Shown piece after piece: positions 7,360 through 35,345 of a stretch of DNA of 64,000 nucleotides. Each line of letters starts with the position of its first letter. Within the stretch, counting starts at the first letter, position 1. Location of the stretch: IMG/VR virus record IMGVR_UViG_3300029928_000002, positions 64,001 to 128,000 of that record; one strand, 5' to 3'. The DNA comes from a virus (taxonomy: Duplodnaviria > Caudoviricetes). The position numbers and the translations under genes are program-made. The notes below the pieces were generated by a model that did no database searches, had not been told where the DNA came from, and was given only the letters and a program-made list of their open reading frames with translations.

Positions 7360-9230
7360 ATATAAATTTTAAAAAGTTCTAGAATGGGGGTTCAATAGCC
7401 CCCTTTCTAGCCTCTTATACACCAGTACAAGTAAATACAACAGCAGCTGACCCTGCTTTATCTTTATTTGATAATACTGGCAATTCTACAGCAACTACTG
7501 CTAAAAGTTCTGATAGTATTGACATGAAAGATACTATGGAACTATTAAAAAGTATGAGAGGTTTAGATACTGATGTATCTTTAGTTAGCACTACCCTAGC
7601 TTAGTAGGCTAAAAGAGATGCATTGTTTGGTACAGGAGATCCTGTATTACAATATTATAAGAATATAGATTTAATAAATAAAGTTATTGAATCTAAAGAA
7701 GAATATAAAGATGCTTACGATCAGGCTAAAGCTCAAGGAGCTTTGTCTGAAGCTGCTATTTCATCTGACGGTAGGGTGGTAGTTAAAACTTAGAAAGGAT
7801 ATAATTTAGTTACTCCTAGACAAGCTTTAGCCTTATAGGCACAAGGGGTAGCTGCTATATAGAAGAACTCAGATTTACTTAAAGCTCGTAGACACGACCC
7901 TTCTTTAGCTTTATAGAATGAAGTGTTATCTATAGTTCAAAACAGTGTATCATTTACAACTGTTAAGAAGACTGTAGATTCTATTGTAAAATAGTTAGGT
8001 AAATCTACTGTTACACAAGAAGGCTATAGTGCTAGAGAAGGTAACTAGATTCAAGCAGGTATTGCAGCTATTAAAAATGCTGGAGTAGGCCCTATGGATG
8101 GAGTTTATAAGGTAACTTATAAAAATGAAACTCAAGAAAAATAGGCTCAAATGGCTTTGGATGCTGTATATAGAAATCTAAATGATACTTAGAAAGCCTA
8201 TCTATAGTTAAATTCTGGAGGTACTCCAGAAGGAGTTTATGGCCTGTTAAAAGAAATGATATTAAGCCAAACTTCTTCCTTGCAGGAAGTTAGGTCTAAA
8301 TATCTTAAGCCTACTAATACTTCAACTGGTAGTGGTTCTTCTAAAGGAAGTAGTGCTTAGAATTCTTTAGGAGATGTCAAGATGGATCCGGCTGTCCAAT
8401 TTGCTTTAGGATATGGTACTAAAGAAAAAGTACCTATTATGGGTAAGGGACAGATAGGTATAGATGTTACTGCTAATTCTATTGCTATGTAGGATGCTCA
8501 AGGCAATCCTCAAGATATGCTTACTTTAGGACAATTAGTTAGCGGTCGTCTTGGAGGTATGTTTGTAAAACGAGCTTCTATGGACGGTGCTATGTTATCT
8601 CCAGATTCTCTTAACAAAGTTGTAGTAGATGGAGGTAGAGTTTATTCTACAGAATTACCAGTAGATAGGTAGGCTTTAGCTAAAGGTGTTGTCAGACCAG
8701 ACTTTGGATTACTTAACAAAATAGAACAAGCTAATAGCTAGTTAGGTAATCTTGGCAGAATACCACAAGATCAATTAACTCCTGCTTAGAAGACTTAGAT
8801 TAATAAAGTATATCAACGTAATGGTATTGCAGCTAAATACGATGTAAATGGTAATCTTACTTCTGAGTATAGAAGATTTGCTGTAGTGAATGGTACTGCT
8901 ACAGAAAGAGCTTTCCAAGGAGGGTAGCCTAACTTTACAATAGAAGCAGCTGAAGCTGATGATCAAGCTAGAAGTAATTATGTAGATAATATCAAACAAC
9001 TTACTCAAAACAAAGACTTTAAGTTGGATAACGGTTGGTTCGGAACATTTGGTACTGAAAAAGTATATAAAGGTACTATCTTTATTCCTATGAGTAGTAA
9101 TTTTGTAGATTACTATACAGGTAGTGGTATAAAGATGTCTGCCAATCAGTTTGACTAGATATAGCAACTTCAAAATCATAAAGATTAGTTATTAAGTAGG
9201 TATAATAATCCTGGTAATTTATCACAATGA
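7356..9230 (+). CDS. Virion/cargo-type protein of unknown function, 624 aa (TAG=Gln)
   Basis: Starts MNINFKKFQNGG. ATGA overlaps at both ends. The frame showed only TAG interruptions where read. Completely missed by the standard-code track. Confidence 0.8.
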
Positions 9231-12200: not shown

Positions 12201-15200
12201 ATAATGCTGAAGAGACTCCATCTAATCCAAGCGAACAGGCTTTAAATCTTGGGGAAGAACCTTTATTTGGGGAAGAACAACCTTCAACATCTCCCGATAC
12301 TTCTAAAACAGCTACTATAAGTGATGTTGATTCAGCCCTAACTAGCAAAATAACAGATACGGATACTATAGATAGTTCTACTTATGCAGAAGCTGTTTAG
12401 CGCATTCTCAGCGATGCTTATAGTAGGAATTTAGAGGAAACTGTTAACAGATTAACTTCTATAGGTTCTATACCGGCGGATTTAAAATAGAATTTAGTTA
12501 AGGTTATATCTAAAACTAAAGATTTTATTTTCGGAAGACTCGGTAATCTTAGTTAGGATATGATTCAGATTGGTAATTGGAATCTCATCAATGAAGTTAA
12601 TAGTAAAAATAAAGAGTTTGTAGACAACTTGGATAAGTTGTAGAAAATTGTAGACAACTTATCCTATACTCCAGTAATGGATATTTTAGACAGTTATAAC
12701 TCTGCTATAAATGGAAGTCCTATTAAAATATCAGAAGTATTTGAAAAATTAAAAGCTCTTGAGAGTTAGAGTAGTTCTGATGTATCCCAATTCTTATTAG
12801 ATGATGATTTATCTAAACAGCTGAATCAGGCATCTGTTATACTGGATTAGGTACAATCGATAGTTAGTGGTGCTAGAACTGATGATGCTGCTTTAACTAT
12901 GGTTGATGAGAATACCCTATAGCCTAAAGATAATATTTGGGGTATTAATAAGACCTTAAATGATATAGCTAAAGCTAGTAAAGATGATTCTTGGAAAGAT
13001 CTACCTGCTATTAGTGGATCTGTGGCTGATGCTATATATACTGATATACATTCCATTAAGGTAAGATTGGATTATTATAAAACCCTTTACGGAATAAATA
13101 GAGGATAGAAATTAAATTCTTAGAGTAGAATATCTGTTAATTCATCATATTTAAATTATAAGAGAGTTAAACAACTTTCTGATATAGTTCCAGACGATTG
13201 GGATAAGTCTGATTTAGACACCATATTGCCAACATTAGTTACATTAGAAGCTAATTATAATTCTGGTAATTTAAATCTTGATAAAGATACATAGATTAAA
13301 TTAAAGAAAGAATCCATATAGTTAGAAGATGCTATTTATGAATTTTTCTAGAAGAATAAAGATAAAGATTTCTCAGAACTGTTTAATGAGAAGTCTTATA
13401 AACTTCTTACTGAAAAGTACACCTTGTTAAATGAATCTACTACAGATATTGATAGTAATTCATTTATGGGATGGTTGGCAGCAAAAGCTTCTATTAAAAC
13501 TTCATCCTTCTTAAAAGGATTGTATGGAATTAATGATACTAAAATAGTTCCTCTAGATCCATAGATTTAGGCTATATAGTTAAGTGTAGCAAATATTATT
13601 AATGGAAATACTATAAGTAAGTTTGTTCAGGCTGCTAAAGATGCAACAAGGAAATATATAGATAATTTATCCGTTTCTGAGAGATATGAGTATTTTAAAT
13701 AGTTATATCCTAATAATACTACTGTAGCGGCAATATTATCTACTGAGAGAGGTAAACAATTATTCTATACATTCTCTTCTTTTGCTCCACAGTATTCTAA
13801 TATAACTTTAGTAGAAGGACAGGCAGGAGCAGGAAAATCCTCAGCAGTACTTAAACTTACTTCAGAATTTATATAGAAATATTATCCAGATGCTCTAAAG
13901 AATGCCTGGACAGCAAATACAAGTGAAGATACTGCTACTAAACTTAGAGATAACCTAGGAATTAAGGATGGTAAAGTGTTTAGTAGAGAATCTTTACTAA
14001 AAACCGTATTAACGGATTATACTACTCCAGATATTAATGCTGATGGTACTATAAATACTTCTAAAGATACCAAACCTAGGATAATTTTTGATGATAGTGG
14101 ATTACATCATAATTATACTCTAAATGATAATACTACGGAAGTTCCTAAAGTTATATTTATAGACGAAATAGGTAGATATACTTGGGATGAGGTAGATGCT
14201 TTAAATGATTGGGCTGCTAAAAATAATGTATCTATTATAACTGCAGGAGACTTGCATCAGTCTCAGACTGTTTATGACATAGCTTTAAAAAATATAAATG
14301 GATGGTCTAATTATAAAAATGATATTTAGAATGAAATAGCTAGCAATAATTTAATACATCCTAAATCCAAAACTTTGGTAGATAGTATTAAAACTGATAC
14401 TTCAGCTATTTTGTCTATACAAAGCAATGCTTTCCTACATACTCCAAAATTAGGATCTTCTCTCAGAACTGCAAACAGTCAGCAAGATGCAAATCAACAA
14501 GTTGTTGACAGTGTTCTTGATAACATAGATTCTTATAACAAAGAATTAACTTTACATTATTGGGAATCTGATACAGAACTTCGAGGAACCAAAGTAGTTA
14601 TTGATGATGTCAAGAGTGTTGAGGAATCCTTAATTAAGATGATTGCTAAATTAGGTAAAGATGAAAAGATTGGCTATGTATATAATGATACTAAATCAAA
14701 ATTATACCAATTAATTAATTCCACACCTAAATACAAGGATCATATTGAATTTTATAAAGGTAATTCAGCACAAGGATCTGAAGGAAGATATTGGATAATA
14801 GAACCTAATACCAAAGCATCTGAGTATCCTCTAATGTAGGACATATACACCAGTATTACTAGAGCTTAGGAAGGAAGTGTATTAGTATTTGCACATACTT
14901 ATGGAGGTCCTAATGTAAAACTTATATAGAGTGTACAAGATAAAGAATCACAAGTACTATCGTTCAGTGATTCTGATAAAGCTAGGTACACTAGACGTTA
15001 CTTAGACATAAGTAATGCTGCTTTACAATCTTTCACAGATACTGCTTTACCTAAATATCAAGAAAGAACGAATAATTCTTCAACTAATACTAAATCAACT
15101 TCAACTAAAGCTGGTGGAGTTGGTAATGGTAATGGTACTGGAACAAGTGGTCAAGGAACAACTGGTAATGGTGGAACACAAGGTGGAACACAAGATGGAA

Positions 15201-18200
15201 CACAAGGTGGAAGTACTTCTTCTCAAAACCCTGCTCCTGCCCCTACACCAAAACCAAGTAATCCTAAAGAATATGTTACTTCTATGGCTAATTATAAGGA
15301 TAAATATGGAGTAGATTGGAAAGTTCTTTTAGATGGATTGGCCGAATATACAGCTGAAAAAGCAGCAAATGGGCATATCATTATTTCTTTCCCTAGTCCG
15401 ATGTAGGTTTAGTGGGGAGTTATGATTGGTTCTTTAAATGGATTAGACATAGATCCCGTATCTAAAGAAACAACTGCTATAGGATTACAGCATCCTAAAG
15501 ATGGTAAACCTTATATTCCTTAGGATTCTAATTTTGATGCATTTTTAGCTCAATAGGTATAGAATTTAGGTATTCAACCTACTACTTAGCCAACTCCAGA
15601 ACCAACTCCAGAACCAACTCCAGAACCAGAACCATAGTCACAGCCGTAGCCCGCACCGCAACCTTCTTCTAAACCAAAAAAGAAACGGCCTGTAACTTCT
15701 AAAGTAGAATGGAGTGAATTAGACCCAAATGCTTATACTGTAGATACATCTTCAGAAGATACTAAAATTACATTTAACAATAGTGTAAAAATTTCTAAAG
15801 CATGGTCAAACTAGTATATTAATGGAGGCAATTATTCAAAATTGTATAGTATTTCTATAACTCCAAGTAACTTAGTTAAAGCGACCTTTACAAAAGGCTC
15901 CAAATATACTACTAAATATACAGATGCTACTCTTGGCGATATTTCTAGTTTGGAACCTGAATTACAATCTTTTATAAATAATATATTAAATTCTAAACAA
16001 TATCCTGCAGAATAGGGACTATCTGATGATGATGCTCAAAAGCAGGAATTGCATAAAGCTGATTCTGAAGACAATAATATCTAGGAAATAATTGATTAGG
16101 CAGAAAATTAGTCAGTATCCGGAAATAACAGTGCTGTTCGAGATTTCTTCTTCATGGATTCTAGTAAAACTTTTGAAGTTGGTTGGGTTAAAGATAATTC
16201 TGGAATTTATAAACCATCTTCTTCAAATGAGAAGACATATAATAGAATTGATGGATTCAATGGATTATTTAATGCTAATGGTACTTGGAAGAGTGTATAT
16301 AAATTTAATGATAAAGGAAATGATACTCTACAAAAGAGACAAGAAAAGGCTATTAAATTAATAGGACAGCTACGCCAATTCGCCTTTAATATCAATAATA
16401 AGTAGCAGTTAGTTGAGGTAATAGCTAAAGCTCTTAAATTAGAAAAGAGTAATCCTTATGTTACATTTGCTATAAAATCTGGAGATGTGGTTTCTGTCAA
16501 TGGAGATAGTAATGGACATCATATAGCTTAGAAAAGCAACTTTAACAAATTCGATAAGGATTCTGAGGAAAAAACTCTATACAGCAATAATTCCGAAAAA
16601 GTATATAATCGTAACTTAGTTATGATTATAGGTAATGGTGGATAGGATGTATTAGAAATTCCATTACTTAAATTAAATTCTCCCCAAACTAAAATACAGA
16701 GTTTGGGCGATAATTTTAAGGAATTGTATATCAATACTTTAAACGCCTGTAATGGAGATGAGCGACAGGCTTTAATCAAAATAGCAGCAAATCCTCTTAT
16801 AAGAGACCATTAGGATATAGTAGACTGGATTAAGATATATACTAATACCAACAATGTTAGGACTATATATTATTAGAATGATCCTGACTGGACATTAGGA
16901 AAATTCTCCAATCTTGGGCCTCAGTATAATGCTGACAGAGGACTAGGTTTTTATGATGCTAACTAGAGTTTACAACAAACTAGAGATTTAACACCTTTAG
17001 AATCTATACAACGCCCTGATATAATAGTATCTGACGTACTTTCTTATATTAGTAATAGAGGTAAAACAGATGATGGTGTAACTTTAGTATCAAATCCTGG
17101 ACACTTATTTGTATTATATTCTTCAAATCCTAGCTACAATACTACAGAAAAACTTGTAAATAGGTATGTACAATGGAAAACTTAGAAAGCAAAAGGTGAA
17201 CCTTATATTCCAGATGTTCATATTAAATATATATCTACTCCTAAAGTATCTATCGACAACTATTTGGACAGCATTGTTAATATTACTATTAAAGGGTAGA
17301 AAGGAGTACCTATTTTAGGTAATGACAAAACTTCTTACCTAGTATTGAAGAGTATTTTCTTAGACAAAGGAGGTAATCCAATAAATGATGCTGGAATTAA
17401 AAATTTAATTGAAAAAGGTTGGGGAACTAAGGCTGCAGATAGTGTATATAATTTCCTTCTTACTAAAATATAGGAACTAAACACACTTCCCCTACCGCAG
17501 TTAATGAAGCGACTAAATTAGGTTGAAGACTGGAGTAAACCGAACCTAAATTAGGTTGAAGACTAGAGTAAACCGAACGGACTTCCCGGAGGATTTGGTT
17601 ATTCTGGAAAGAGTTTATCAACTTAGTTTATGTCAGTAATAAGACAGTTAATTGCTCCAGTAACAATAAAGGAAGATAGCTAGGGTAATTTCACAACAAA
17701 ACCTGAAGTCAACACTGATTGTAGAGAATTATTTGTTAACTTATTTAATAAATCAAAGCAACAGCTTTACTTCCAATCTAGACTTTAGAATTCACAAACT
17801 GCCAATGTAGGAAATACCTTATTTAAGAGAGTACAAACTGATCCTAATAATAGGTTTAGAATTAAATATGATGGAGGTATATAGAATTTAAAAACATAGT
17901 TTAATATATATGGGGATTTAGGTTCTAATGCATTTATTACAGACGATTCTTTTGGGGACTGGTTACATACTATTGCTGGTAGAATCGAACGGAGTAAGAA
18001 GGGAATAGAAAGTGATTTTGGAATATATATGGACGGACATTCTAATATTGCAAATTCCAAAAATACTGCTACACCTTCTTGGAATAGTTATTCTTAGAGT
18101 ATATTGAATGTCTTAGACAGCAGCTTTAAAAAAGGAATTGTTCCAGATTCACCTAATAGTTCTCTCACTGATGCTTAGATTTGGTCTATTAAAGAGGAGT

Positions 18201-18934
18201 TACGTAAAGGTAATAAAGATCTACTAATATTTACAAGTGGTAATAAAGCTACTCCTATAGTATTTGATACTGGAGGTCTTAATTTGTAGTTTATTTAGAA
18301 CGGAGAACCTACTTATAGACTACCTATAACTAGTAATGATTCAAACTTCGATGCTATAGATGGTATTACTAAAAAACACTATACAGTATATTTTAATTCA
18401 AGTACTGGTGAAATACGTATAGTAGATCCTTCAAGCATTCAGAAAAACCCTGCTCCACAAACTACTCAGTAGAAACCTTCTTAGAAGAAATCTACTAAAG
18501 AATAGAAGCCATAGCAGCAACCTACTCAAGAATTCAACAAAGAATTTTTATTAAACGATAATACTTTATCGGCATATAAATTATTATTAGAAAATGTATT
18601 AGGTAATGTCGGAGGAAAAGTCAGAAGTTTTAAAGAATTTGTTAGTTCAGCTTCAAATAAGAGTGATATATCTGAATGGAATACTTGGTTATAGGACAAA
18701 GGAGGTATAAGAGCACTTTAGAGGTTTATTATAAATACTTTAACAGTTGCTAAAACCACTAATCCTGGATTAATTACTGAAGAAGATAAAACTACTAAAT
18801 ATAACTTGGATAATGTGTCTCTTGAAGGCGACTACAAGGAAAAAGATAAATCTTTAGCTAAACAAATTCTTTCAAGTATATTGGAATATGAGAACAAAAA
18901 TATATCTTGTTCAATCGGAACTGTTAAACATTAA
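9227..18934 (+). CDS. Giant ejection/RNAP-associated protein, ~3235 aa (TAG=Gln), with hydrophobic N-terminal region and SF1 helicase domain
   Basis: All plausible + fragments from 9251 to 16405 are in one frame and end in TAG. Helicase motifs at ~13810-14870: EGQAGAGKS, IFIDE, AGDLHQ, SAQGSE, YTSITRA. ALGEGTEE..GGALGGG at ~10960-11130. Ends TAA 18932-18934. Confidence 0.85.
15588..15665 (+). repeat. Pro-rich linker repeat (QPTPEPTPEPTPEPEPQSQPQPAPQP)
   Basis: CCAACTCCAGAA x3 plus degenerate copies, in frame within the 9227 gene. Confidence 0.8.
17513..17578 (+). repeat. In-frame 33-nt tandem duplication
   Basis: CTAAATTAGGTTGAAGACT(G/A)GAGTAAACCGAAC x2 with one mismatch (TGG vs TAG). Confidence 0.95.
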
Positions 18935-18939
18935 GTAAT

Positions 18940-21900
18940 ATGAATATATGTAAATATTCACGTGATTCATTCCAAGAGGATTTCGAGAATAATCTCGAAC
19001 CTCTTTGGAGTGATTCTCTTGTAATTAAAGATGCTGCCGGCAATGAGGTAGCCATAACAGATAATATAAGAAGAAATTATATAAATAGATTGATAGATTA
19101 TTTAGGAGGTTCTTACAATATTAAAGGTAATTTTTCAGATGCAGTAGAAGCTATACAAGAATCTATGGAGAATTACCTCGATGAACCTCTCCAACTGCCT
19201 GAAGAAGATATAGAAGCAGCTTTAAATCGTCACAGCATTACTTCAAGAGACTAGTTAAATGAAGATAGTTCTTCAACTAAATTGGAAAAAGATGATGAAA
19301 GAACTGCTTATAAAAATTCATTCAAGAATATTTATCTAACTAAATATTTTGGAAAATGTATTCCTGCATAGAATTACTGTACAAAACAGGCAATTAAAGC
19401 TATTGTAGACAGTTGTATTATTTCTCCAGAATATGATGATTCTGGAAATATTATAGCCAGACATATAGTAGTCGATGACAAATAGTTAAATAGAAATATC
19501 AGAAATATTTAGGAACAGTTATATCAAAACATACTTAAATATTTAAGAACTAGATTTTCTAAGAATATTGAAAAGGTAAACAGTTTACCTCAATCCTTAT
19601 ATTCTCAAGATTAGTCTGTATATACTGGAGGATTTGAGAGATTGAATGAAGAATTTGGAGATGTACTAAATCCAGATTCTTTTAACAGTTCTTATTTGGA
19701 CAATTTGTTTGTAACCTATAGTACAGCAGTTGGCCTTAGTAAATAGATTACTAAAACTGAAATAGATGGATATACCTCATGGGTAATGTTAACTAATTTT
19801 GATTCAGTACTTAGAGGAAATTTGGGAAGTTCTATATTTATAAATAGTACATTACCTGCTTTTAACCCAGAATCTGCTACAGGAAATCTTGATAGAGTTA
19901 AATATTCTCTCACCAAGGCTAAAGCTTCAAACATGAATAAATCATGGAGAACTTCTGAGGATATAGATGTTTCTGACGAGATTAGTAATGTAGTACAAGT
20001 ATTGATAAATAATATTCCATTTAAAGGAAGTGATAGAAATATTAGGTTTAATGAATTTGGATATATTATAGGAAAATTAAAAGACTTATCTTATCATATA
20101 AATCCCACTGCTAATTAGGTAGAATTTAATGATGATTTATATGTGAAAGATATATTAAATGGTGAATATATTAAAATATCTGACAGAACTAGGAATCTAG
20201 TTGAAGGTGACACTTTCTTTAAAATATTAAATAGTATATAGACTTCTGCACAAGAGTATATTCCAGCAATATTTGAAATATTAAGCAATGACGACTTACG
20301 AGGAAAATTAAAAGAATTGATTCAGGCAGATTACCAACTGTCAGACTTTGATGTAAATCTAATTAAGTCACTTTATGATGGATTGTTTAATCCTGATAGT
20401 AAAACCTCATTACTATATGCTAATGATGTAAGTGGTTACGATGCATAGAATTATATGGGTTATATTACTCAGGCTTGTGATGGAATTTCAAATGCTAGAT
20501 ATATTCAATATTTTAGAGACAGTGATGGAAATATTTATGCCCGAAATTTATATGACCAAACATTGGACGGTATCCAATCAGATATTGAAAATAATATATT
20601 AATATCTAATTCTAGGGATATTAAGCCTTTTGATTTTGAACATTTCCACGAATTTTCGGTTGAAACTAAAAAAGATGAAGATGGCAATGAATCGATAGTT
20701 TCTATAAGATTTAGAATTAATGATAATAAAGAGTATATAGTATATCCTAATAATAATAATGAAATAGTTACTAATGATGGAGTACGAACCTCTTTAGACA
20801 AAGCTGACTTTGATGATGTAAAGAATATCGTACAGGAAGTATTACATTAGAATTTTGACACTAATGATGAATATTATAAATCATTATTAATAGCATATAA
20901 TTAGCAGGAAGGAACAGCTTTATAGGACTTGCTTACTCTTTCCGGAAATGCTGTATTAAATCTTTATATATCAAATAAACTATTAATAGATTCTGATAAG
21001 AATCCAATTTATAATACTAGAGAGATACATGATGTTTTAAAGAATATATATGGAGAAATATCTAGAGGTAAACTTACCTCAAAAGCACCTAAGTATAATA
21101 AAAGTTTAGGTTAGATATATCTAACTTCTCAATATGACTATCCAATACTAAGTAAGTTAGCTTTAGCTAAAGCATTATATACTGGTAGAATAACCTCTTC
21201 ACAAGTACGAGATGGTAGTGGTAACGCACTTCCAAGCACTTCACTATCCCGTCTTTTAGGAAATATTCTACAACAATATTATACTAAAGGACTTACTGTG
21301 GATTCTGTTGTGAATAATGTAGCTCTATTCAAACCGGGAGTTTTACAAGGAGTATTTTAGGCTAAAGAGTTTAATAATAAATAGTAGAATACTTCTACAG
21401 CTCATACAGAATTTAATGCTGCTGAAATAGAATAGTCATAGTTATTTTATGATTTCTTACTAGGATTGCAACCCAAAATAAATAGTAGAACTCCTATAGG
21501 TGATGGTAAAATAGGTATATTACCTTCAGTCAATTCGGATAAATCTAATATAGGGAGAATTATTGTAGATTTAAATAGAATACTTATAAATGGTTAGTCC
21601 CTATATAAATGTTTGGTAGACACCTTTGGTAATGTACGTGAAAATGCTGAGGAAGTATTAGATTAGTTTATCTATGATGAACTGGGAAACAATAATGGTG
21701 TATATACAAAAATTATTGCAAATATCAATGCAAAATGGGATAAAACCTAGTAGGCTATAAATGAATATCTTACTCAATTTAATAGTCCTTATAGTAATAT
21801 TGCTGGAGAACGTACAGGCAGTATTATGGATAAATTGAATTAGGTTTATATTAAAAGTGACCGTACTATACAGAAACCCGCTGCTTTTCTTAATGATGTT

Positions 21901-24900
21901 ACTCGTTGGTGGAATAATAAACATCCTAATGATATTATAGAATTGACCGAACATTCTACTTATGAGGTAGATAAATCTTCTGGAATATTATTACAAAATA
22001 TTCTGTTAAATACTATGAAAAGCAGATTGAGCAGCACTACTTCAATACATTCCTTCTTTAACCGGCAGAATGGAAAACTTTTAAGAGATTTATTAAAAGA
22101 TAACTTTGATGGCGGTGGGAAAATATATATAGGACTTGTCGATTTATCAAGTGGTAACAAAATAGTGGTACATAATATAAATGATTTATATTTAAATCTC
22201 AATAAAATTAATACTGCTTTTAAGTCTACTCTAACTACATCTTCATCTTTAGATGACATATTGAATACTTTAGGAGGCAATATTACATTAAATCCTCTTA
22301 TAAGTATATATAATAAATTGAATTATATATTCTCTTAGGAATGGATGATTTCTAATGTAGGTGGGCATTTCAACCACCCTGCTAAAGCTTCTATAGATAC
22401 AACTTTATTTAGAACTGTTCCTCTTTCTGCATCAGAGTTGTCGGAGTTGGACAATCTTACGAAGGTTAATAAATAGAATAATATTCGACTGGCATAGTTA
22501 TATAGACAGTATGGATATGATGATAATGCTTTTAAAGAAGCGGTTATAGATAAAGTACGTAAAGTAAATTCTAAATTTGGAAATACTAGAAAAGCCTTTG
22601 GAGAAGATGCTGTTAATAAATTCTTATAGAAAAGGCATGATGCAGAAATTTTGGATGAAGCTGGTAGATTTAATTCTCAGACAAAACGTAATGTATCATA
22701 CACTGCTGCTATGCATCCTTATCAACTTAAAAGTTTACAAGGAACACCAGATGTTGCTAATGTTGTAGTTATGAAACAACCCTCCACAAAAGTATATACA
22801 GTAAATGGTGACTATACCGATGCGTGTATATCGGATGGTGGTACGTTCATAAATCCTTGGATGGCTTATTGGGAAAATGGTGCACTAGGTTCTGAAAAAG
22901 TGGGTATAAATAAGAAATAGTATATACATTTCTACAAACAGGATACTGGTACTGGTGGTATGGTAAAAACCGCCGGATATGCTATGACTAATGAGCTTAT
23001 GAGGCTGTCTCCATGGTAGCGAAGAATGACTAGAATGATGGCAGATAGAGCTTGGAGAGATGAACAGGGTAATACAATATTTTTAGATGTAACTAAAGAT
23101 TATAATAATAATAAAATTCTGTTACAAAATAATAATGATATTCAAGGTTCTTTCTTTATTAAAGTTGGAGATGATTATTACAAATTCTTACAATTAAACT
23201 ATAAAGGGAAGGGACGTTATACTAGAACTCTTTAGAAAATAGATCTAGAAACTCTAACTGGTAAAGAAACTAAAGAATATGATTTAGAAGGCAAGGTAGT
23301 TACTGACACAAATGCCGGAACAGTAATTGATTCTAATTACAAGTTATGGCAAATGCTTGGAGGATATGAATGTTACGAGCAGAAATCTGGAATGAATAGA
23401 CTAACTCATTCTGAATATAGTATTAAAGCAGTTGCTGATATTGCTAATAGAGTTGGTATAAAAAAAGTTCCTGAGGGAACTACTGTACGCACACAATCTG
23501 ATTTATATCAGGTTATGAAACATTCGGATTTTCATTACGTCTGTGACGAAGGTAGTGTAAAACATGGAGAGGCAGGAGTTGAAGACCTTACACCATATCT
23601 AAACGGAAGTAAGCCTATAGAAGACTTCAAGCCTAACTTTATGCATGTTCCTATGGAACAATCTGGTATTCAGTTGGATAAGGAGCATAATGCAGACTAG
23701 GAATCTTTATCTATATTTACTTAGGTTATTAGTGCTTGTGCGGCTAGAGGATATACAGCAGATAAAGCTCAGAACTTATATAAATCTTTAGCAGCTTTAG
23801 CTTATAATGCTACAAAAGAATATCAAGAAGTTTTTGATTAGTTCTTGGAAAATCCCAATGTGTATAGAGATAGCTTTTAGGAAACTATTGCAAATCTATG
23901 TGCTAAAGCCTTAATGAATGAAAAGAATACTTCTGATGTATTGAATTATGTTGTAAGCAATCTTATTAATTTAGCTAAACAAGGAGAAAGATTTAAATTT
24001 AAGGACAATATTCCATTCAGCGATAATTCTATATATAATAAATTAATATCTACTATAGGCTCTACACTCACTAAATCAGCTATTAAAGTTAAATTGCCTG
24101 GACTGTTAGCAGTGTTGTGTCCAAGTAGTGGAATTGTTAAACTTTATGGAGATAGGTTGCTTAGTTCTTATAAGCCTGGAGAATTAGAAGCTCTACAAGT
24201 AGAAAAGAATAATAACCCTAATTGGACTATTACTGATGGGACGATTACTCCTACACAGTTATCTAGAACATATACTCTTACTGTAAATCCCGGACATGAA
24301 GAAAGCATAAGTAATGTTTTAGGTATTACTCCTAATTCTAATACTATAGACTTTACTTTATATACTCCAGTTGAAAGAGAAAAACTGAAATAGTTAATTG
24401 CTCAAGGAGATATAACTAGTATTGTAGAAAATGTAATGGTGGGTAGAGATTTATCTGCTTATGATGTTTTCTTTAAAGGTACAGATGCTGATGGAAATAC
24501 TTAGCAATATTCTTTATACGATTGTGATGTAATTAAATAGAGATTTGCAGATAAAGAATCTGTAAGTGATGAAAATTTGCAATATTTATTAAATGTGTTA
24601 TCTCCTTCATCCTAGGCATACGATGTTGGAGATAATGCTGTTACAATAAATGGGCATGATATTACAATAGATAGAAGTTCCATACAAGTTAAACCTTATG
24701 AATTAGTAATACCTAAAGTATTTGCTACCAACTTTGGATTAGATTTTGATACTGATTTACACGCAATATTGCAAGATCCACAATACTTTACTAAAAGATT
24801 AGCATCTAAGATAGCGGATACTATTGATGATTCTTATTATAGTGTAGCATTTACAAGTCTTGGAGGAGATCCTGTATATGTATTAGATAGAAATAAAGCC

Positions 24901-27900
24901 AAATCCTCTGATAATTTTAAAAGAATAGATGTAAACACTGCAGTAGATAAGGACGGTAATGTAGACATACTAGATGACAACTTTAATAAAGTATTAACAC
25001 TATCTAAAAATTAGAACGATATTGAATAGGATCCAGATTTACATTAGGATGAAGTATGGCAATACGTTGATGGCTAGGGCCTTACACATAATGTAATAGT
25101 TACTGATGATTTAGCTTATTATGCTAATAATACTAAATGTAATGGAATTAAAGTTGGAGAAAAGAATTATGATGATTCTACTGAAGATTTATTAAAGAAT
25201 TCCAAAAATAAAACTGTATAGAATTGGTATTGGACTATTGCTAAGAGTGGAAGTATTACAGCAAAGAGTACATTTAAAGACAGTGTACGTGCTTTTAATG
25301 CCTTGCTTCGTAATGTTACAAAAGAAGGATATACCAGTAATAACTTACGTAATAGTTCTATAATAAGCAATCTTGCAGATTAGGGAACAGAAATCTGGGA
25401 ATCTTTCAAGAAATCATTAGATGTTGTTGCTGCTCGTATTCCTGCTCAATCACTACAGTCAGTAATGGCAATGAAAGTAGCAGGATTTATTGATAGTGAC
25501 GTTAATACAGCATATGTAAGTACCTTGCAGACTTTTTTATAGGGTTCCGACTATAAATAAATATTGTAGTCTTTAAATTTCGTGAACTGCGGGAAATTCC
25601 TTAGAGCTTATTTATACTAAAATATATTAGAAATAATTATATTGGTCATAATTAACTGTTATGAGTATAGTAAAAAGTAAATAAGATTGGACAATCCGCA
25701 ACTAAGTACCTTAATTTAAATTGAATTTATTAATGTGCTAATGCTATTTAAAATATAAATTTAATTATAAAAAAGGTAAAAGCTCATCGACTATCCCTTT
25801 ATGGGAGTAGCTGGAAGCATTTTACTTTAAAAAATAAATAATAGTAACAAATAAATTATAAAGTAAAATGGTTGTCCAGCGAAGTGCGAAACATTCTAAC
25901 AAGAATGATGATATAGTCAGTTTTGTATTGAAAGATACAATGTAAACGGATATTGACGCTGTATCATTAGCTATGTATGCTTTCGATAAACAAGGAAAGT
26001 TTGTATAGTGGTCTCCTTACTTTAATCTAAGTAGTGCAGATACTTTACAAGCTTCTTTGCAATTACCTTTCCCTACGGGAAAGATTTTAACTTCTACAGA
26101 TGTAAGATTTGATTAGAGAAATCCAAATAATATTATGTACTATATTAGTACCTCTAATAATCCAGATGATTCTAAACCTTTTGTATTATATAGAGGATAG
26201 GATGGAAGTCCTAAAATAAAATATAATTTAGATAATCCTACTAATATATTAACATTGGCCGGATTCCTAGATTATATAAATAACTATGGATTTGTCTTTA
26301 ATAGTGGGGGCTTGTCAGAAAAAACATATGGACAAGTTGCGGATTTATTGCTTCCTATAATTAATAACCATAATAATTATATAAATACAGTTAGAGATAG
26401 CCGTACTAAAGAAGATATGATAAAAAATAGTATATAGTAGGCGATCTTTGATATTGTATTGGATCCTAAAAACTAGCGTGAAGCACAAACCTCTGTAGAT
26501 ACTGCTACTAAATTAGCCAAAAGTGTTGCTAATGGTAAGACAGAAATAGCATCTCCAGAAAATGAGGAAGCCATAAGAAATACTCCAGGAGCATTCACTA
26601 CTAATATTTATGGATTTACTTCAAATCAAGTAGGTAAAAAAGCAATTGGTATTGCTGCAGCTACTGGATTAAAAGCCTATTTTACATTAACACAATACTG
26701 TAATAATCTTCTTAAACAGGGGAATGAGAATGCTTTAAAAAGACTTAGATTTGATGTAGAAATTGGAGGTGAGGAATATCATACACTCTCTAACATATAT
26801 ACAGATAAACCAAATTCTTTTGCAGAAGAATTAATAAATCTTGCTAAAAATGACTAGGATTTTGCTCTACAAATATCTGTAATGGAATCTCTTTCTACCG
26901 ATAATGCTAAAGAGCTTTGTCTGTCTAAGTTAAATTGTACTACAGATACTATGGGATTGTGGCTATATGGATTAGCTATAGGTATGGATTTTAAAGATAT
27001 TGCTAAAATTATGATGTCTCCAACAGCCTTCTCATTAGCTAATACTATGAGAGGTAATGTATTTAATGGAGATACTGCTGTATCTATTAATAGGTTAGGT
27101 AGCTATGTTAATGACGGCCCATAGAGTTCTACAGCCCAGAAAATTATTAAGAAAATTATTGGCGTAAAATACGATTTTTCAAAACCTTTGTACGAAAATT
27201 TTAAAAATCATCTTGGTACTCAAGAGGACAGTGAAGATACTGATACTGAAATACTAAATCTACTTCAAGCTGATTTAAATAGTGTATCTGCTTCAGATGG
27301 TAAGGGAATTACTCATTAGGAATATTTGGATTATGCAAAAGGTGTAGATGAAATAGTGTAGTGGTTGCGGTTGTATAGAGAAGTAAATAACAATCATAGG
27401 GTATATGAAGATTTTATGCAGTTAGCTAAAGGAGCTTCTGAAATGTTACAATTAAGTCAAATATTACATCTAAATCAGGGACTATTTAATTCTGATACAG
27501 ATATTTTAGCTTTTATAGATAAATTCTCAAACCTCATAAATGATAGAAGGTATCAAAATAATCCCAAAGAGATTATTCCTAAAGAATCCAAAGTTACAAT
27601 AGATTTACATCAATTTGTAACTAATCCTAAATATAGAAATGATATTATTAACGCCTATGAAGATGTAAAAGTTTCTTTCAATATATTAGATGTATTGGCT
27701 AATATGCCTACATATTTCCAATATTTAAAGACATTGGATTTGCAGCACGCTATGAACTATAATATTTCTAGTAAATATAGAGCAATGACCGATATTGGCA
27801 AGAGAGCTGTGAATTATGTAGGAGCACATAGTGCTAAAGATGTTCAAAAGGTATATAAAAGAGTATCTAACTATATAGATATTTACACTGCTGCTAAATG

Positions 27901-29155
27901 GATGCTTGAATCTGATTATAATCCTGCCTAGTATGGTGATCATGGTATTAATATATACTTACCTATAGGAGCATATTATTATATTCAAGATGTATCGAAT
28001 AATAATATTATTACAAAGCGTAGAGTGACAAAAGGAGAACGTGAAGATATTTTTGGAGAGAAACATATAGTTAACTCTTTGCACGGTATGCCAGTAAATT
28101 TAGGTACTGCTAATGGTAGAGCTTCTTTTAAACATTGGATGGAATCTACTGTAATACCTAATTTACAAAAAGGTAGAAATGGTAAAAGAGGAGCTAATAA
28201 TAAATATATTACAAACCCCAATTCTCCATTAAGATCTAATCTATTTATATAGAGATTAGGAGTAAATCAATTCACTAAAACTCCTATGGGAAATCCTATA
28301 TTAGGATATGCTTTGGATATTAATATGTCTCCAAGAACTGACCATGAAATTGAACTTTTATATCTATATAAACAACAATTTAATAAGTTAAAAACTTATG
28401 GAGAATATAGTAAATATTATACAGGTACACATAGTTACGATTTAACAGAATTATTCTTCCTATATAATTTATGTACTTATCAAAATAAACTTGGTGAAAA
28501 TACTCTGACAACGATATTTTAGGATAGTAGGGATTGGGGAATTATAGGAGACTATTATAAATATATCAATACAATGGATCGTTCTAGAGACGTTATAGCT
28601 CCAGAAATTTCTGACATTGTTCAATATATAGCTCCTATAGCCAATAAATACAGTACTAAATTAAAAAACTTCCTAAGTGTTGATTCTATAACAGGAGATG
28701 TTGTTGTGATGACTAGAAAAACCAAGGCGGATATTGAAGTAGAGTAGGAATATACTGATCCAAATGCTAAAATAGATCCATTTAGGGCAACACCTTTAAC
28801 TAGAGATGTAAATTATCCTACTTTGGAATCCTTGAATAAAGTAATAAATATTCCAATACTTGATAAATCCGAAGACTCCGATGTTAAACTTAAGAATATT
28901 CCTAAGAGTAATTAGTCGTATGAGGATGAATCGGGTAACGTGATTGATATACGTAATATAAAGATAGAACATACTAACGGAAGTATTCTTAAGATTTTTG
29001 TTAATGATAAATAGATAAAAATACCAAATGAATATTTGAAGTATTTTACCCATATCCCAACAAAGCTATAGTATTTTGGAAAATTACCAAAAGCAGTAAA
29101 TGATTATGGAACATTAGTCGATGATATAGTAACATTAATATCAAGAGTATGTTAA
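18940..29155 (+). CDS. Virion two-barrel RNA polymerase catalytic subunit (crAss-like), join(18940..25554,25949..29155), ~3273 aa (TAG=Gln)
   Basis: Motifs ISDGGTFI, GIQLDKEH and ARIPAQS, and after intron removal FLQGSDYDIDAV (DxDxD-type catalytic loop of crAss-like vRNAPs). Fragments before 25554 share one frame and those after 25949 share the next, as a 394-nt insertion requires. Confidence 0.9.
25555..25948 (+). mobile_element. Group I self-splicing intron (IA2-like), 394 nt, no homing endonuclease ORF
   Basis: P1: exon GACTAT pairs with GTAGTC (25566-71) with a U.G at the splice site. P10: AATATT pairs with 3' exon GATATT. P AACTGCGGGAAA 25585; Q AATCCGCAACTAAG 25693; P3 TTTCGT/GCGAAA; P7 GACTA 25789/TAGTC 25914. 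P7.1 and P7.2 stems, P9 with GAAA loop, terminal G 25948. Confidence 0.95.
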
Positions 29156-30243
29156 ATTGTATTAACCCTGAGTTAAATCAGAAAGTTCATGACTTACAAA
29201 AAAAGTCTGGACTTTCTGATTTTCCATTACGCAGTTAGATAAGACATTATCTTACAAATCATAATGGTAGATTACCTGAATTAGATGAATTAAAAGGAGC
29301 TAATTCTGAGCCTTACTTATACAAGGATTTAAATCTGCCTAAAGGAGGAAGTGCTGATATAAAAACTTTGCTTGAAAAAACAGGTGCTCAAACTTTCTCA
29401 GATGCTATTATTAGTCTAAATAATACTTATAGAGATTTAGAAATTGAAGGTCATGAGTTAAATAATGACACATATTACCTAAAAGTTAGACATAGGCCAA
29501 CAGTAGATAGTAGTATGTTAGGAGTATTTGATGATGCTCAAGTATCTCCAAATGTGAATGTTGTAGATGACCATACATTAATTGTACAAACTGTAAATAA
29601 ATTGGCAAGTTTATATGGAATAACTATACATAGAGTAAAAGAGGATAAATTACCGCAAGGTTCTAAGAAAGGAACTGTTAGAGGATATATTTAGAATGGG
29701 GAAGTATATATTGTAGAAGGTAATAATGGAGTAGATACCAAATTACATGAAATGATGCACTTAATATTGGGCAGTGTAAAATTTCAGAACCCATCTTTAT
29801 ATTATAATTTAGTTGCTATGGCTCCTCAATTTTCTGGTTTTAAAGAATGGGCCAGAAACTACGTAAGTACATATGGAAAAGATACCTTAAATGATTTATC
29901 TGAAGAATTTATGGTAAGCAAAATTGCCAACTATTTAAGCGGTTAGAGTAACGATACTCAATTAGCCTCTATGATTAATAATAATCCAGAAATGTGGTAT
30001 TAGACTATGTACCATATGAATAGATTACTAGATTCAGTGTTTATGGGAGGGGCTTCTGTTAAAGCAATTCCTGCCAGTAATCTATATAACTATACGTTTA
30101 GGCAAGTGGCTAATATGGTTAATTCTGCAGTAATGTAGAATAAATATTATGGCAGTCTAGATGATGCTTAGACACACCGTATAGAAATGAATCTTAAAAA
30201 GCACTATATGCAAAATGATAGATTGCTAATGAAATGTGAATAA
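29149..30243 (+). CDS. Zincin-like (HExxH) metallopeptidase-domain protein, 364 aa (TAG=Gln)
   Basis: VRGYIQNGEVYI...TKLHEMMHLILG...LSEEFMV. The start overlaps the RNAP stop. Ends TAA 30241-30243. Confidence 0.8.
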
Positions 30244-30254
30244 ATATTTTAAAT

Positions 30255-33200
30255 ATGTTAACTTGTAAATATACTTTATTAGATAAAGACAAATAGTCTA
30301 TAATTGGAGAATTTGACACAGAGGCACAATTAGACGACTTTTTAATAAAATAGGATGAATGTAATAATAATCAGAATATATCAGATATAGTATTTTCTAG
30401 AAGTGCTCCAAATTTGAAAGCTCAACAAATTCTTGAAGAATAGGCAGTTATCTCTAAAGAACTTGAAGAGAAAAGATTGTTATGGAGTAAAGCTATAAAA
30501 AATGCTGTAGATGATGATTCTGAAATTATCCTTATGGCAGATCCTCCATATATTGGTGTTACTAAATTCTTAGATGGTAGAAGAAATAATGAGGGAGATC
30601 TACTTACTCCTGAATTTATTAGTGAGAATTATTGGGGGAATAGAAAATCCCATTGGACATCATAGATTCCTGCAGGTTAGAGTATCAAAGATATGTTTAA
30701 TGCTCAAGAAATTAAACTTCTAGCCGACGGAAATACTGACGAAGAGAGATATTAGAATTTCTTACAGAGTAGAACGTCTAATGGAACATATCAACCCCTA
30801 ACTCAGCAGGAAGCAGATAATTTTTAGAAGACTATTTTAAAGAAATGGGCATTTATAAATACAAGAGGTACTGCTATACACTTTGTAATGTAGCAATATT
30901 TCAGTCCGTTAATAGGTGCTGACGGTAAACCACTTACTAAAAATGGTAGAGTTTTTAGAGTGTTTGACTTGACAAATTCTCCACAAACTTTAAGTGGCGT
31001 CAATTTTCCATCTATTACTGATTATATAAATCGGAAAATTAGTACTGATTTGAAATCTTAGATGGGCAGAAAATTTAGTCCGGATCTAATTACTCCAGAA
31101 TTACTTTAGAATGCTCTAAATTTTGCAGAACAGTTCCACGAGCATATTAAAAAAGTGTTAGGACAAACTGAAGATTTGGATTTTTTCCCTGAGTTCAAAA
31201 TAACTGGAGATTTACATACTACTCAAGGCCCTCCAAAATTGATGGGTATTATCGACTTATTGGTATTGGATAATAAAGGAGTAGCTCATATTTTCGACTA
31301 TAAATGTTCTGATAAGAAATACTCCGATTTTAGTGAGGCGAAGAAAAGAGGATTCTATTATCAGCAGGCTATATATAACAGACTGTTAAATCAACATGGC
31401 CTAAATACCTATAACAACAATATTAGAATTGTGCCTATTGCTTTAGATAATTTTAGAGGTGAGAATATAGAATATACTTTATCGGATCCAGATAAAGTTG
31501 ACTTTACTTTTGACAATAAGCTCTATTATCCACCTCAGATGTCTGTAAATATCAGACCTGATATTACTTCTGTAAACTCTAAAGGTGAATCTAGAATACT
31601 TGATAATATAGATGAGTTTTTACCAGAATCTACTGTTACTAATATAGCCTCCGATAAAGCTGTAGAATTTGTAACCACCATGATGGGTAGATTCTTTCCC
31701 GACTATTCTGGAGGTAAAGAGATAAATGAAGATCTTATTGAGCAGGAAATAAAAGATGCTGGAGGTTTTGAAAGAGATTCTGAAGGTAAATATTCTTTTG
31801 AAGTATCTGCATATAAGAAATTATCTTTTGACGATCCTAAGAAACTGTTAGATGCGGTTATAAAAGAGAGAAAGTATCAATAGTTACGTAAATCTCAGTT
31901 AGCTTCAACTACAATATCTGCTTTAGAGTATGCCCAAAAGAATAACACCAAAGATATACAAGATATTATTAAAAATATTGATACTAGATTCATTTAGGAT
32001 AAGAATGCTTATCAGGGATGGTTTAGAAATTATCTGTAGAAATATTGTAATTCTGATTGGCAAATACTGTCTAGTGAGAGTGCCAGATTCTTTGGATTAA
32101 TATTACTTAGAAATACTGTTAATAATTAGATAGATGTTATTAAATTGTCTGCATCTAGCCTTAAACGTATTAGAAATATAGATAAAAGTAATAAGAATGT
32201 AAATATCGACAGAGCTTTTGAAGACGATATTACTGAAAATCAGAATACTAATTCTAGAATATTACAAGATGCTGAAGGTAATAGAGAATTAATTGAAACT
32301 ATGTTATTCTTAAATACCGTACCGGCATTATTTAGTGGTACTTATAATAATGGAGTGGTTGGTAATATAGAAGTAATAAATCCATTTAGAGGTGAAGGTA
32401 TAGCTGCTTCTAATGAAGAGCTACTTTATTCTTTAAATAAACTATCTCAACACGCTGAGTGGACTGAAGCTAATAATATTGCTAATGGTAATATAAAGTT
32501 TGGAAGTAAGTGGTAGCTATTTAGAAACGAACTTCAAACCGCTTTAAATAATAGTATTGGATTTTAGCTTTCTAACACTGAATATTTCCAACAGGCTTAG
32601 AATGATATACAGACTACTGTTACTGGAGATAACAATAAAGATGCGAAAATTAATATATTGCTTAGAGTAATTAAAGGTCTCGAAGATGCTTATAATATTA
32701 ATCAGCTTTCAGCCAACTAGTTGAACAGTGAAACTAATTTATCTCCAGCATATAGACTGTATTATGATTCTCTAATTACTTTGGGAGAATTGAGAGGTCT
32801 TAATTTCAGACAGCAATTAAAAGAATCTGCTAAATGGATTGAGAATGGATTAAGTAACATATTAGCTAATGGTATTGGTGGTATTTATGTTGATAACCCT
32901 GGTAACTTAATTTCTGAAACTCTTAACAGTATTACAAAACTACATACTCAAGCTCTTCAAAATAATAGATAGGATATGGTTGGCCCTACAGCTAAAATCA
33001 GGGATCTAACTGAAAGACTTAAAAAAGAGAAGAACTTTGGATATATTACATCATTAGTATAGAATGATATTGATTTATATAAAAATATGTATGAGACTAC
33101 AGCTAATGGTGATCTAAGATTTGTAAATGTAAATAAGTTATCAGGAGTTGAAAAAGAATATTTGCAATATGCTTTACGATTGATAAACAGAGATAGGTAT

Positions 33201-35345
33201 CCTAATTATACAGAAGCATCTTTAGATTCTATGGAACAGAATGATGATATTGATTATTATAGAGTTCCATTATGTAGAGCAGAATCTAGAGCTAATTAGA
33301 GAGATGCTGGATTGAAAGAAAAACGTAACCCTGATACTGGTGAAATGGAATCTTATTCCAGTAGTTTATGGCAATCTTTTGTAGATACTTTAAAAGCATT
33401 TTCCTTTAAGAATGCCTTTAAGGAAATGTAGGAGAAGATTAATGGAATATTTACAGAAGACGATACTGCTTACAATAATGCTGCCAAGCTGTTCGATTTA
33501 ACTACATCGTTTGATAGAAATGAGCCAAATGCTTCTGGAAACTTATAGGATAGATTGGATAATATAGCTACTAAAGGTACAGGATATTTTGAATAGAATC
33601 TTGAAACTCTTACATTAAAACACGTATTTGCCTATTCCACTAAGAAGAGAATTAATGAAATTATGCCTACAGTAAAAGCCGGTATGGCATTTCTTATTAA
33701 TATGGGAAATACTCAGAACACTAATTTTACTAATGACTTGGAATATTATGAAAACTATATTAGAAATAAGATAAAAGGCCAGCCTTTGGAAAATGATCCT
33801 ATATTAGGTAACTCTAAAGGAGCGTAGGGGGTTAAAGCTACCGCTGCTAAAATAAGAAGTGCAGCAAGTTTCTTAGCTTTAGGTCTGAATCCAATTCAGT
33901 GGTTTTATCAGAGATTGTAGGGTATATGGACTGATATAGCTTTAATTATCCGTAAACCTGATGGAAATCCTGCATTTACTTTTAAAAACATGGTAGATGC
34001 ATATAAGACTGTAAACAAAGATCTATTCCACTATTCCGATAAACCTACTAAATGTCAACTTATTAATGAATTGTATGGAATAAATGATATGGATATGAAT
34101 CAGTATGCGGATAAATTACGTACTGATAAACATGGATTATTCCATATAAATGAACTTGCTTTTAAATTCACTTCTAGGCCTGACTTCTATAACAGAATGA
34201 CTATTATATTAGCGTAGATGAAAGAGTAGGGAGTATGGGATGCTTTAGAGGTAAAGGATAATAAGCTAGTATATAATTGGAGGAAAGATAAAAGATTTAG
34301 TGCTTATGCTAATAATGAAACTTCTAATCCAGACTATATTAAATAGAAGAGTTTATATTTAGCAATAGCTTAGCAATTTGTAGCTGAAGGTGTGTAGAAC
34401 CCTGATGGGTCTTTATTTGAAATAGGACAACCTCTACCATACGCCTACACCAATAGAGAAATGGAATCTATGAAATCTTTATGTGATACAATCTATGGAT
34501 ATTATTCACATGAAAAGAAATCTATGATACATTCTACTTTCTTGGGAAGTTTGTTTATGCAAATGAGAACCTATTGGTCAGGTAAGAAAAATCAGTACAT
34601 GTTAAAAGGCGGTGTAAGATTAAGAGGCCATTGGGAACAATTAAAAGATTCTGATGGAAATCTATTATATTATCAGACTGATGCCGATGGTAATTTAGAT
34701 AGAGATGTTCCTCCAGTACCTAAAGAACAAGTTAAAAACTAGTAGATGTTAATACCATTTACTTAGTGGAAAGGTCAGTGGGAAGAAGGAATTGTGCAAA
34801 CTTTTGCAAATACTTTAAGAGCTTTACATAGAGATGATGCCGTAGATTGGTATAATCCTTATACTTGGGTATACGGATATAATAAATATCTAGATACTCT
34901 AGATCCTTCTATGAGAGCTACTTACAGACAAAATTTAAGATAGCTATGGGTAGATTTAATAGGAACTCTGTTATTAGGCTCTCTTATAGGAGGTATTTTA
35001 TCAGAAAAAGATAAAGATCTTATTAAAGAAGCTAAAGATAGTGGAGACCTTACAGATGCCATGCTTGCTTCTATATCACATATAGGTGTACGGTCTTGGG
35101 TAAATTCTGCAGCTGATTTTAATGCTTTAAATAATGTAATTAGCCCAGCTTTGGATTGGAAACCTTATTGTTTCCAATCTATAGGTAACTTAGCCCAAAG
35201 AGCTTTTAATACTTTTACAGGTGATTAGTCTGCTTATAACAACATTATAAATTCATTCTCAGCAACTAAAGCCATTCAACCAGTATTTACTTATATTGCT
35301 CCAGATGGTGGGTATATATTCCCACAAGACGAAGATCAACAATAA
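30255..35345 (+). CDS. Large RNAP-locus protein with PD-(D/E)xK nuclease domain, ~1696 aa (TAG=Gln)
   Basis: RGTAIH...PEFKI..GIIDLLV..HIFDYKCS..YQQAIY (~30860-31380). All + fragments from 30477 to 34742 are in one frame. C-terminal hydrophobic helix LWVDLIGTLLLGSLIGGIL. Ends TAA 35343-35345. Confidence 0.85.

Follow-up and report, generated by a model that had tools for sequence, protein, structure and literature searches.

Four giant genes and the cysteines at their facing ends

The window analyzed here is a stretch of 64,000 nucleotides, corresponding to positions 64,001 to 128,000 of the IMG/VR virus record IMGVR_UViG_3300029928_000002 (Duplodnaviria; Caudoviricetes). The virus is a crAss-like gut phage, probably of the Zeta group, as its 155-kb record, recoding, introns, and transcription block all fit that group (PMC7886860). 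Our subject is a chain of four consecutive + strand genes in this window and the cysteines found where the ends of their products face each other. These genes encode a helicase-domain protein of 3235 amino acids (aa) (9227–18934), a virion-type RNA polymerase (RNAP) in two exons (18940–25554 and 25949–29155), a zincin-like protein of 364 aa (29149–30243), and a PD-(D/E)XK-domain protein of 1696 aa (30255–35345).

At all three junctions, the upstream protein carries a cysteine 1–8 residues from its C-terminus and the downstream protein carries one at residue 4. All six codons lie exactly where the initial annotation had placed them, as checked in the sequence. TGT at 18908–18910 encodes Cys3228 of the 3235-aa protein, the eighth residue from its end, and faces Cys4 of the RNAP (18949–18951); the final residue of the RNAP, likewise a cysteine (29150–29152), faces Cys4 of the zincin-like protein (29158–29160), and Cys363 of the latter (30235–30237) faces Cys4 of the 1696-aa protein (30264–30266). 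The outer ends are free of cysteine, as had also been proposed: the first protein begins MIQQKEND and the last ends PQDEDQQ. Because it has no C-terminal cysteine, the PD-(D/E)XK protein ends the chain. The chain proteins are cysteine-poor overall, with 3, 19, 2, and 8 residues, respectively (0.09–0.63%, vs. 2.14% in 37 open reading frames (ORFs) of the opposite strand), and the zincin-like protein has exactly two, at residues 4 and 363. Among the 37 opposite-strand ORFs, a cysteine occurs at residues 2–6 in three and in the last four residues in one, which is approximately the chance rate. A rough chance estimate for the six placements, taken at the block cysteine frequency of 0.37%, is ~3e-11; chance is in any case irrelevant because the terminal cysteines are conserved in relatives.

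The + strand block at 1–35345 closes into a few giant genes once TAG is read as a sense codon, assumed to be Gln, with 83, 62, 6, and 36 in-frame TAG codons in the genes for the helicase-domain protein, the RNAP, the zincin-like protein, and the PD-(D/E)XK protein, respectively. Under translation table 11 the same block fragments into short ORFs, and reading TGA as Trp does not close it either. The genes of the opposite strand (35456–64000) are open under the standard code, and neither a tRNA gene nor a suppressor tRNA was found in the 64-kb window. In related loci carrying the same block, TAG must be read as Gln in 79 of 88 and TGA as Trp in 9 of 88. Each ATG assigned here is the first start codon, 3–8 codons past an in-frame stop, and the next candidate start of the chain genes lies at least 51 codons downstream; the N-termini of the chain proteins also align from residue 1 with those of their homologues. 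The true starts thus lie upstream of the cysteines, and the concern raised in the initial annotation that they might lie downstream falls away. The block is not one continuous frame of the polyprotein type but consists of four genes with their own TAA stops and starts, the stop of the RNAP gene overlapping the ATG of the next.

The labels given to the four proteins at the outset (helicase, RNAP, zincin, and nuclease) hold at the level of motifs or Pfam matches. By family profile, the 3235-aa protein is a putative helicase of the P-loop ATPase type, a marginal assignment: PF13604 (AAA_30) matches residues 1524–1682 with 27.1 bits against a cut-off of 27 (E 4e-6), and PF13604 and PF13245 are present on many of its homologues. 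The zincin-like protein has no Pfam or PHROG match, and its HEMMH motif occupies residues 200–204 (29746–29760); in 24 homologues H200, E201, and H204 do not vary, and in a set of 63 each is conserved to at least 90%. The best fold matches of its AlphaFold2 (AF2) model are weak ones to zincins over residues 137–309, namely PprI (Z 5.3), lethal factor (Z 5.0–5.1), and PPEP-2 (Z 5.0), Z values that are within the range of common arrangements; confidence is low at both termini of the model, and a Foldseek search of the model against the PDB returned nothing below E 0.1. The PD-(D/E)XK protein matches PF12705 with 22.8 bits against a cut-off of 22 (E 1e-4), the same annotation is precomputed on its relatives, and C4, D334, and K350 are invariant in 41 sequences, with D348 at least 90% conserved. 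None of the seven large window proteins matched a PHROG.

The RNAP gene had been read as a single ORF, and this has to be corrected. A probable group I intron of 394 nt without an ORF (25555–25948) separates exon 1 (2205 aa, ending in GSDY) from exon 2 (1068 aa), and the spliced product has 3273 aa. The intron scores 28.5 bits against Rfam RF00028 (E 3e-5), short of the gathering score, which is 50. When the window RNAP is aligned with the uninterrupted one of a related locus (L004), the exon borders fall after GSDY and before DIDAV, which places the intron inside the catalytic DxDxD motif. These borders follow the splice-site rules, with the 5' exon ending in T (U) and the intron ending in G, and splicing restores the conserved motif: LQGSDY is joined to DIDAV, in agreement with the catalytic DxDxD (DFDID) pattern. 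Relatives read QGSD[FY]DIDK, and gp66 of the cultured phage phi14:2 reads TGSDFDIDK at residue 1361. The motif residues G346, S347, D348, D350, and D352 are invariant in 21 relatives, and a profile of these relatives aligns with phi14:2 gp66 over 63 columns around RIPxQ...GSD[FY]DID (E 6.3e-5, probability 64%). BLASTP of the window RNAP against gp66 and phmmer against the PDB gave no match. At the same RNAP site, the insert of a 98%-identical relative (L008) is longer and contains an ORF of 228 aa, and LAGLIDADG ORFs occur in L005, L016, L047, and L089. Since the inserts of relatives carry ORFs and that of the window carries none, the window intron is a form without an endonuclease gene.

Directly upstream of the chain lie genes for two further large + strand proteins, of 1691 aa (2284–7359) and 624 aa (7356–9230), with zero cysteines and no match in Pfam or PHROG. 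By position, they could be counterparts of gp45 and gp46, the channel-forming cargo proteins of crAss001. A 189-aa protein encoded at 1240–1809, in the late block, shows a strong match to DUF192 (87.6 bits).

Conservation of the junction cysteines in related loci

In relatives, the terminal cysteines are conserved far above background, as the idea in the initial annotation would have it. The loci compared came from 80 IMG/VR loci and 11 metagenome contigs, all of which read TAG as Gln or TGA as Trp in this block. C4 and C363 are invariant in 24 zincin homologues of 34–100% identity. An exhaustive search extended the zincin family to 279 cluster representatives; among full-length members down to ~25% identity, a cysteine lies at residues 2–5 in 125 of 131 and in the last three residues in all 131, in proteins that average only 2.9 cysteines each. 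The terminal pair is more conserved than the HExxH motif itself. Homologues of the first chain protein never have a cysteine in residues 2–8 (0/120) and nearly always have one in the last 14 residues (116/120), for the most part at positions -8 to -10; several of these homologues have no other cysteine in ~3000 residues. RNAP relatives always have a cysteine within the last 1–4 residues, whatever the gap or overlap between genes. At the far end of the chain, 45 of 49 unique relatives of the nuclease protein lack a cysteine in the last nine residues. In L042, L044, L047, L048, and L050, the last member has a cysteine at -9 (CINQSLQED; ~15770–15798 in L042) and no downstream partner gene on the + strand.

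The facing cysteines also co-occur, as had been predicted. Junctions were defined as those between consecutive large + strand ORFs, with an ATG-only start rule, which gave 110 unique junctions in 88 loci. Both cysteines are present in 93 of these, neither in 13, and only one in 4. The 13 junctions with neither are those after the last chain member, those at intron borders, and one with a frameshift. Two of the mixed cases (L020 and L067) arise because the ATG-only rule took an upstream ATG, the MAVC start of sister loci being present; a third (L085) lies between intron-borne ORFs, and the fourth (L068) stays mixed. Other apparent exceptions proved to be artefacts, namely a GTG start in L042, a frameshift in L010, and, in both L015 and L017, the choice of an ATG that comes too early.

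Across the relatives, the cysteines are kept although the spacing of the genes ranges between -11 and +29 nt, and they are encoded by TGT as well as by TGC. Since the spacing varies and both codons occur, selection acts on the protein and not on an overlap signal. The cysteine position itself ranges over residues 2–6 at the N-terminus and -1 to -14 at the C-terminus, and each junction has its own motif pair: a C-terminal NPC goes with MxxCINKNS, and a C-terminal LKExCx goes with MxCxYxYK. The rank correlation between the lengths of facing stubs (rho -0.14 for RNAP–zincin, +0.48 for zincin–nuclease) was not used because the sequences are not independent.

Gene fusions and insertions provide a further view of the same pattern. 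The initial annotation had anticipated loss of the cysteines where genes are fused. This is what is seen at the zincin–nuclease joint, where in-frame fusions in two diverged contigs (L089 and L090) have lost both joint cysteines while retaining the zincin N-terminal cysteine that faces the RNAP as well as the RNAP C-terminal cysteine; at the RNAP–zincin joint, to which we return below, a fusion keeps one of the two. Where the chain is extended or altered, the cysteines follow. An extra protein of 333 aa between the RNAP and a 549-aa zincin variant (L071, L078–L080) has a cysteine at both ends, and so does a 1352-aa protein that replaces the zincin (L081–L086). Neither the extra protein nor the 549-aa or 1352-aa variants matched Pfam. 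In L071, whose clade reads TGA as Trp, the 333-aa protein is encoded at ~8199–9200. Splits that introns make at the RNA level, by comparison, have no cysteines at their borders. No longer fused form bearing the RNAP N-terminus was found in the range of 3862–5000 aa. In L003 (1–10007), a gene call of 5964 aa runs off the locus upstream of the zincin; its joint lies outside the locus, and its product may be a fusion of the helicase-domain protein and the RNAP.

The rule extends to cultured phages. In phi14:2, the sole cysteine of g067 (1797 aa) is its last residue, the RNAP g066 (2180 aa; this is gp66, PDB 6VR4) has cysteines only at residues 3 and 2179, and g065 (1421 aa) has one only at residue 3, which makes four cysteines in 5398 residues. 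The phi14:2 record annotates g065–g067 from tandem mass spectrometry (MS/MS) proteomics, with g067 as a virion structural protein. In crAss001, the sole cysteine of gp47 is at -3, gp50 has C5 and a cysteine at -9, and C5 is the sole cysteine of gp49; gp47 is encoded on the opposite strand, and the rule still holds. The same pattern is found in gp61, gp63, and gp62 of DAC15, where the first gene is again on the opposite strand. The zincin-bearing protein of Rudgehvirus jaberico has its one cysteine at -2, and the protein after it begins MAC. In crAss002, gp32 ends VCS, and an internal start of gp33 reading MSC lies 32 codons inside the annotated ORF, whose start (L094, MN917146, 5270–5368) was thus probably called 32 codons too early. 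A hairpin-rich spacer of 170 nt lies between gp32 and the annotated gp33 start.

Phage N4 (L096, EF056009, 14523–27523) shows what the background looks like. Its virion RNAP (vRNAP; 3500 aa), gp51 (644 aa), and gp52 (150 aa) have no cysteine in 4294 residues, and the neighbouring gp53 has four. As the ejected proteins of N4 are free of cysteine, avoidance of this residue is the background against which the terminal cysteines of the crassviruses are the exception. Such avoidance may be general for ejected proteins.

A possible tail-to-head tether and its alternatives

These comparisons suggest a tail-to-head thiol tether, likely a disulfide, that would join the proteins into one linear thread for ordered packaging and ejection, a reading that we regard as probable by a small measure. 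In its fullest form, in which a ~1 MDa single-file "protein train" would be coupled post-translationally by one terminal cysteine pair per junction, the pair would stand in for a peptide bond, set the order and stoichiometry of ejection, and open in the host cytoplasm; our judgment on this form is evenly balanced. The four proteins are the RNAP cargo block of the phage, and analogy with phi14:2 and crAss001 suggests that they travel inside the capsid and enter the host by ejection. The C-terminal thiol of each protein would join the thiol at residues 3–5 of the next, most likely as a disulfide, to give a linear thread of ~8570 residues running from the helicase-domain protein through the RNAP and the zincin to the nuclease-domain protein. 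Because the links would sit a few residues from the chain ends, the N-to-C direction would be continuous with only tiny side stubs, and such a near-continuous thread could be fed through the narrow channel of portal and tail as one polypeptide would be. The thread would fix order and stoichiometry, and with hardly any other cysteines present, wrong cross-links would be avoided. In the host, the reducing cytoplasm would open the links, or the zincin would cut the thread, and the enzymes would be freed. Phages with fused genes would reach the same end by a peptide bond.

That the pairing is between different proteins is argued by four features together: equal N- and C-terminal cysteines at facing ends, none at the outer ends, joint loss upon fusion, and joint presence upon insertion. 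In the two-protein form found in Intestiviridae, moreover, the sole heterotypic pair possible is the C-terminus of one protein with the N-terminus of the other. A disulfide would be the simplest chemistry because there is one cysteine per side and its position varies.

Several considerations weigh against the tether. The evidence for it is comparative throughout. Virions are assembled in a reducing cytoplasm, and most such phages live in the anaerobic gut, so that spontaneous disulfide formation is uncertain; the disulfides of crAss001 were seen in particles purified under aerobic conditions, and they are located on outer parts. Neither a thioredoxin nor a glutaredoxin gene turned up in the 155-kb record (86% complete), and a search for Erv1/ALR was uninformative, as its controls gave no signal. 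At the first junction, the cysteine lies 8–10 residues from the end, and the conserved tail beyond it, with its alternating hydrophobic residues, resembles a docking strand more than a bare tether. An RNAP–zincin fusion seen in two independent samples (P0101) keeps one joint cysteine. Packaging of the window's own proteins is suggested by weak homology, at the RNAP motif and profile, and by gene order. Finally, counting cysteines leaves room for other pairings, such as self-closure of the RNAP together with a link between the outer proteins.

The same junction pairing would be expected of a metal clasp, in which two terminal thiolates, with or without the nearby free amino and carboxyl groups, bind one metal ion such as Zn or Fe and join tail to head non-covalently. 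The cysteines lie near free ends (residues 2–5; last 1–3), so that the terminal amine and carboxylate are possible ligands, and both the anaerobic habitat and the failure to find a disulfide-forming enzyme in the searches just described suit a clasp. However, there is one cysteine per side with no conserved His, Asp, or second cysteine adjoining it, and its variable position (2–6; -1 to -14) is easier to reconcile with a flexible tether than with a coordination site of fixed geometry, which makes the clasp a possible but rather unlikely alternative. Somewhat less likely still is a role in which the cysteines act at each end without pairing: each might, for example, signal packaging or ejection, anchor its protein to the portal, the capsid, or DNA, or be a modified end. 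If the cysteines work only at a free end, the disappearance of both from fusions is likewise expected, and the fusion that keeps one indicates that the two are not strictly co-dependent. Such a role leaves unexplained why an N-terminal cysteine is absent from the first protein in all 120 homologues and a C-terminal one from the last in 45 of 49, why facing ends are equal (93 with both, 13 with neither), and why an inserted protein has cysteines at both ends. A different partnering, in which the RNAP and the zincin each bridge their own two ends or like ends dimerize, so that only the remaining ends connect one protein to another, is compatible with the cysteine counts and with the flexibility of both termini in the zincin model. 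In the two-protein form of Intestiviridae, however, no protein has cysteines at both ends, which leaves homodimers or a heterotypic pair, and homodimers give no reason for cysteines to co-occur at facing ends. Each junction has a conserved motif pair of its own, and a narrow channel would presumably be harder to thread for circular or branched proteins. We consider this partnering improbable.

Enzymatic ligation, in which the thiols would serve to join the proteins by peptide bonds into a true polyprotein, would account for the coexistence of fused and separate forms among relatives and for cysteines placed exactly at the ends. With 0–8 residues beyond the C-terminal cysteine and 1–4 before the N-terminal one, however, there is no room for intein (Hint) halves, as a split intein would need. 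Nor is the cysteine the first residue: methionine aminopeptidase leaves Met in place when residue 2 is Leu, so that removal of Met is not expected where Leu stands at position 2. We know of no candidate ligase, and ligation seems very improbable. There is almost nothing left for an origin by chance or as a side effect of start and stop signals that overlap. At 29147–29155, the TGT that ends the RNAP coding sequence does overlap the ATG-TTA start of the next gene, but the other five cysteines lie outside overlaps, and in relatives the cysteines persist across the whole range of gene spacings and with both codons. They are conserved to ~25% identity, and in crAss001 and DAC15 partner genes lie on opposite strands. 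The conservation counts for the zincin, the first protein, and the junctions refute this reading.

A tether of terminal cysteines appears to be without prior description, as the initial annotation had surmised: full-text literature searches found none, and terminal cysteines of cargo proteins are not mentioned in the crAss001 structural atlas (PMC10172136), the phi14:2 RNAP preprint, the N4 paper (PMC13434306), Yutin 2021 (PMC7886860), or the Zeta-group paper. How crass-like phages pack and deliver enzymes of ~1 MDa through a narrow tail is a standing question. These phages are the most abundant viruses of the human gut. If true, the tether would show in concrete terms how packaging could be ordered, stoichiometry fixed, and ejection sequential, and would explain why the block exists either as a polyprotein or as separate genes. 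In addition, the cysteine rule aids annotation, as it flagged the probably mis-called start of crAss002 gp33 and several mis-called starts in metagenomic relatives. The idea is directly testable in cultured phi14:2, crAss001, DAC15, and Rudgehvirus.

Comparison with known systems

The closest counterparts of the window proteins are phi14:2 g067–g066–g065 and crAss001 gp47–gp50–gp49, which are likewise giant and nearly free of cysteine, have a GSDFDID motif in one member and a zincin domain in one, and obey the same cysteine rule. There are also differences. The window has four members instead of three, with a helicase-domain protein and separate zincin and PD-(D/E)XK proteins; it reads TAG as Gln, its RNAP gene carries a probable group I intron, and its similarity to gp66 is limited to the catalytic loop. 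A comparison of the zincin family profile with phi14:2 g065 and crAss001 gp49 aligned the HExxH stretch alone, or nothing, and BLASTP of the nuclease protein against phi14:2 g065 gave no match; these comparisons therefore do not show the zincin and nuclease proteins together to be a split g065.

For the cultured phages, more is known of the cargo itself. In a preprint on the phi14:2 RNAP, Drobysheva et al. describe the three proteins as virion components that are fused in some phages and assign a zincin domain to gp65. Virions of crAss001 contain gp45, gp46, gp47, gp49, and gp50 by mass spectrometry, and the cargo, which was not resolved in the cryo-EM (cryo-electron microscopy) study of this phage, has been proposed to be stored in a capsid cargo zone and to unfold at least in part in order to exit (PMC10172136). 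Inter-subunit disulfides have been described in the crAss001 tail (hub and ring), in portal-vertex proteins, and in gp57 (PMC10172136). Like the links proposed here, these are inter-chain bonds of the mature particle; unlike them, they stabilize assemblies and do not form a tail-to-head string of cargo.

Phage N4 (Schitoviridae) resembles the crassviruses in that a giant RNAP travels inside the capsid and leaves it together with helper proteins upon ejection, and in that cysteine is avoided, but it has no terminal cysteine pairs, and its polymerase fold is unrelated (PMC13434306). The internal proteins of T7 (gp14, gp15, and gp16) and P22 (gp7, gp16, and gp20) exit via the tail ahead of or with the DNA and have to be at least partly unfolded for this (PMC10172136). 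For the T7 and P22 ejectosomes, a literature search found no covalent or end-to-end link between ejected proteins. A terminal cysteine used between chains is known from the adenovirus protease and its pVIc peptide, where an inter-chain disulfide activates the enzyme and the partner cysteine is penultimate in a C-terminal peptide.

The fused forms among the crassviruses themselves have the same domains in the same order within one chain, as in the zincin–nuclease fusions (L089 and L090), an RNAP–zincin fusion (L091), and gp33 of crAss002, with 4245 aa. In these, a peptide bond joins the parts, and the junction cysteines are absent or one is left, whereas in the window the parts are encoded by separate genes.

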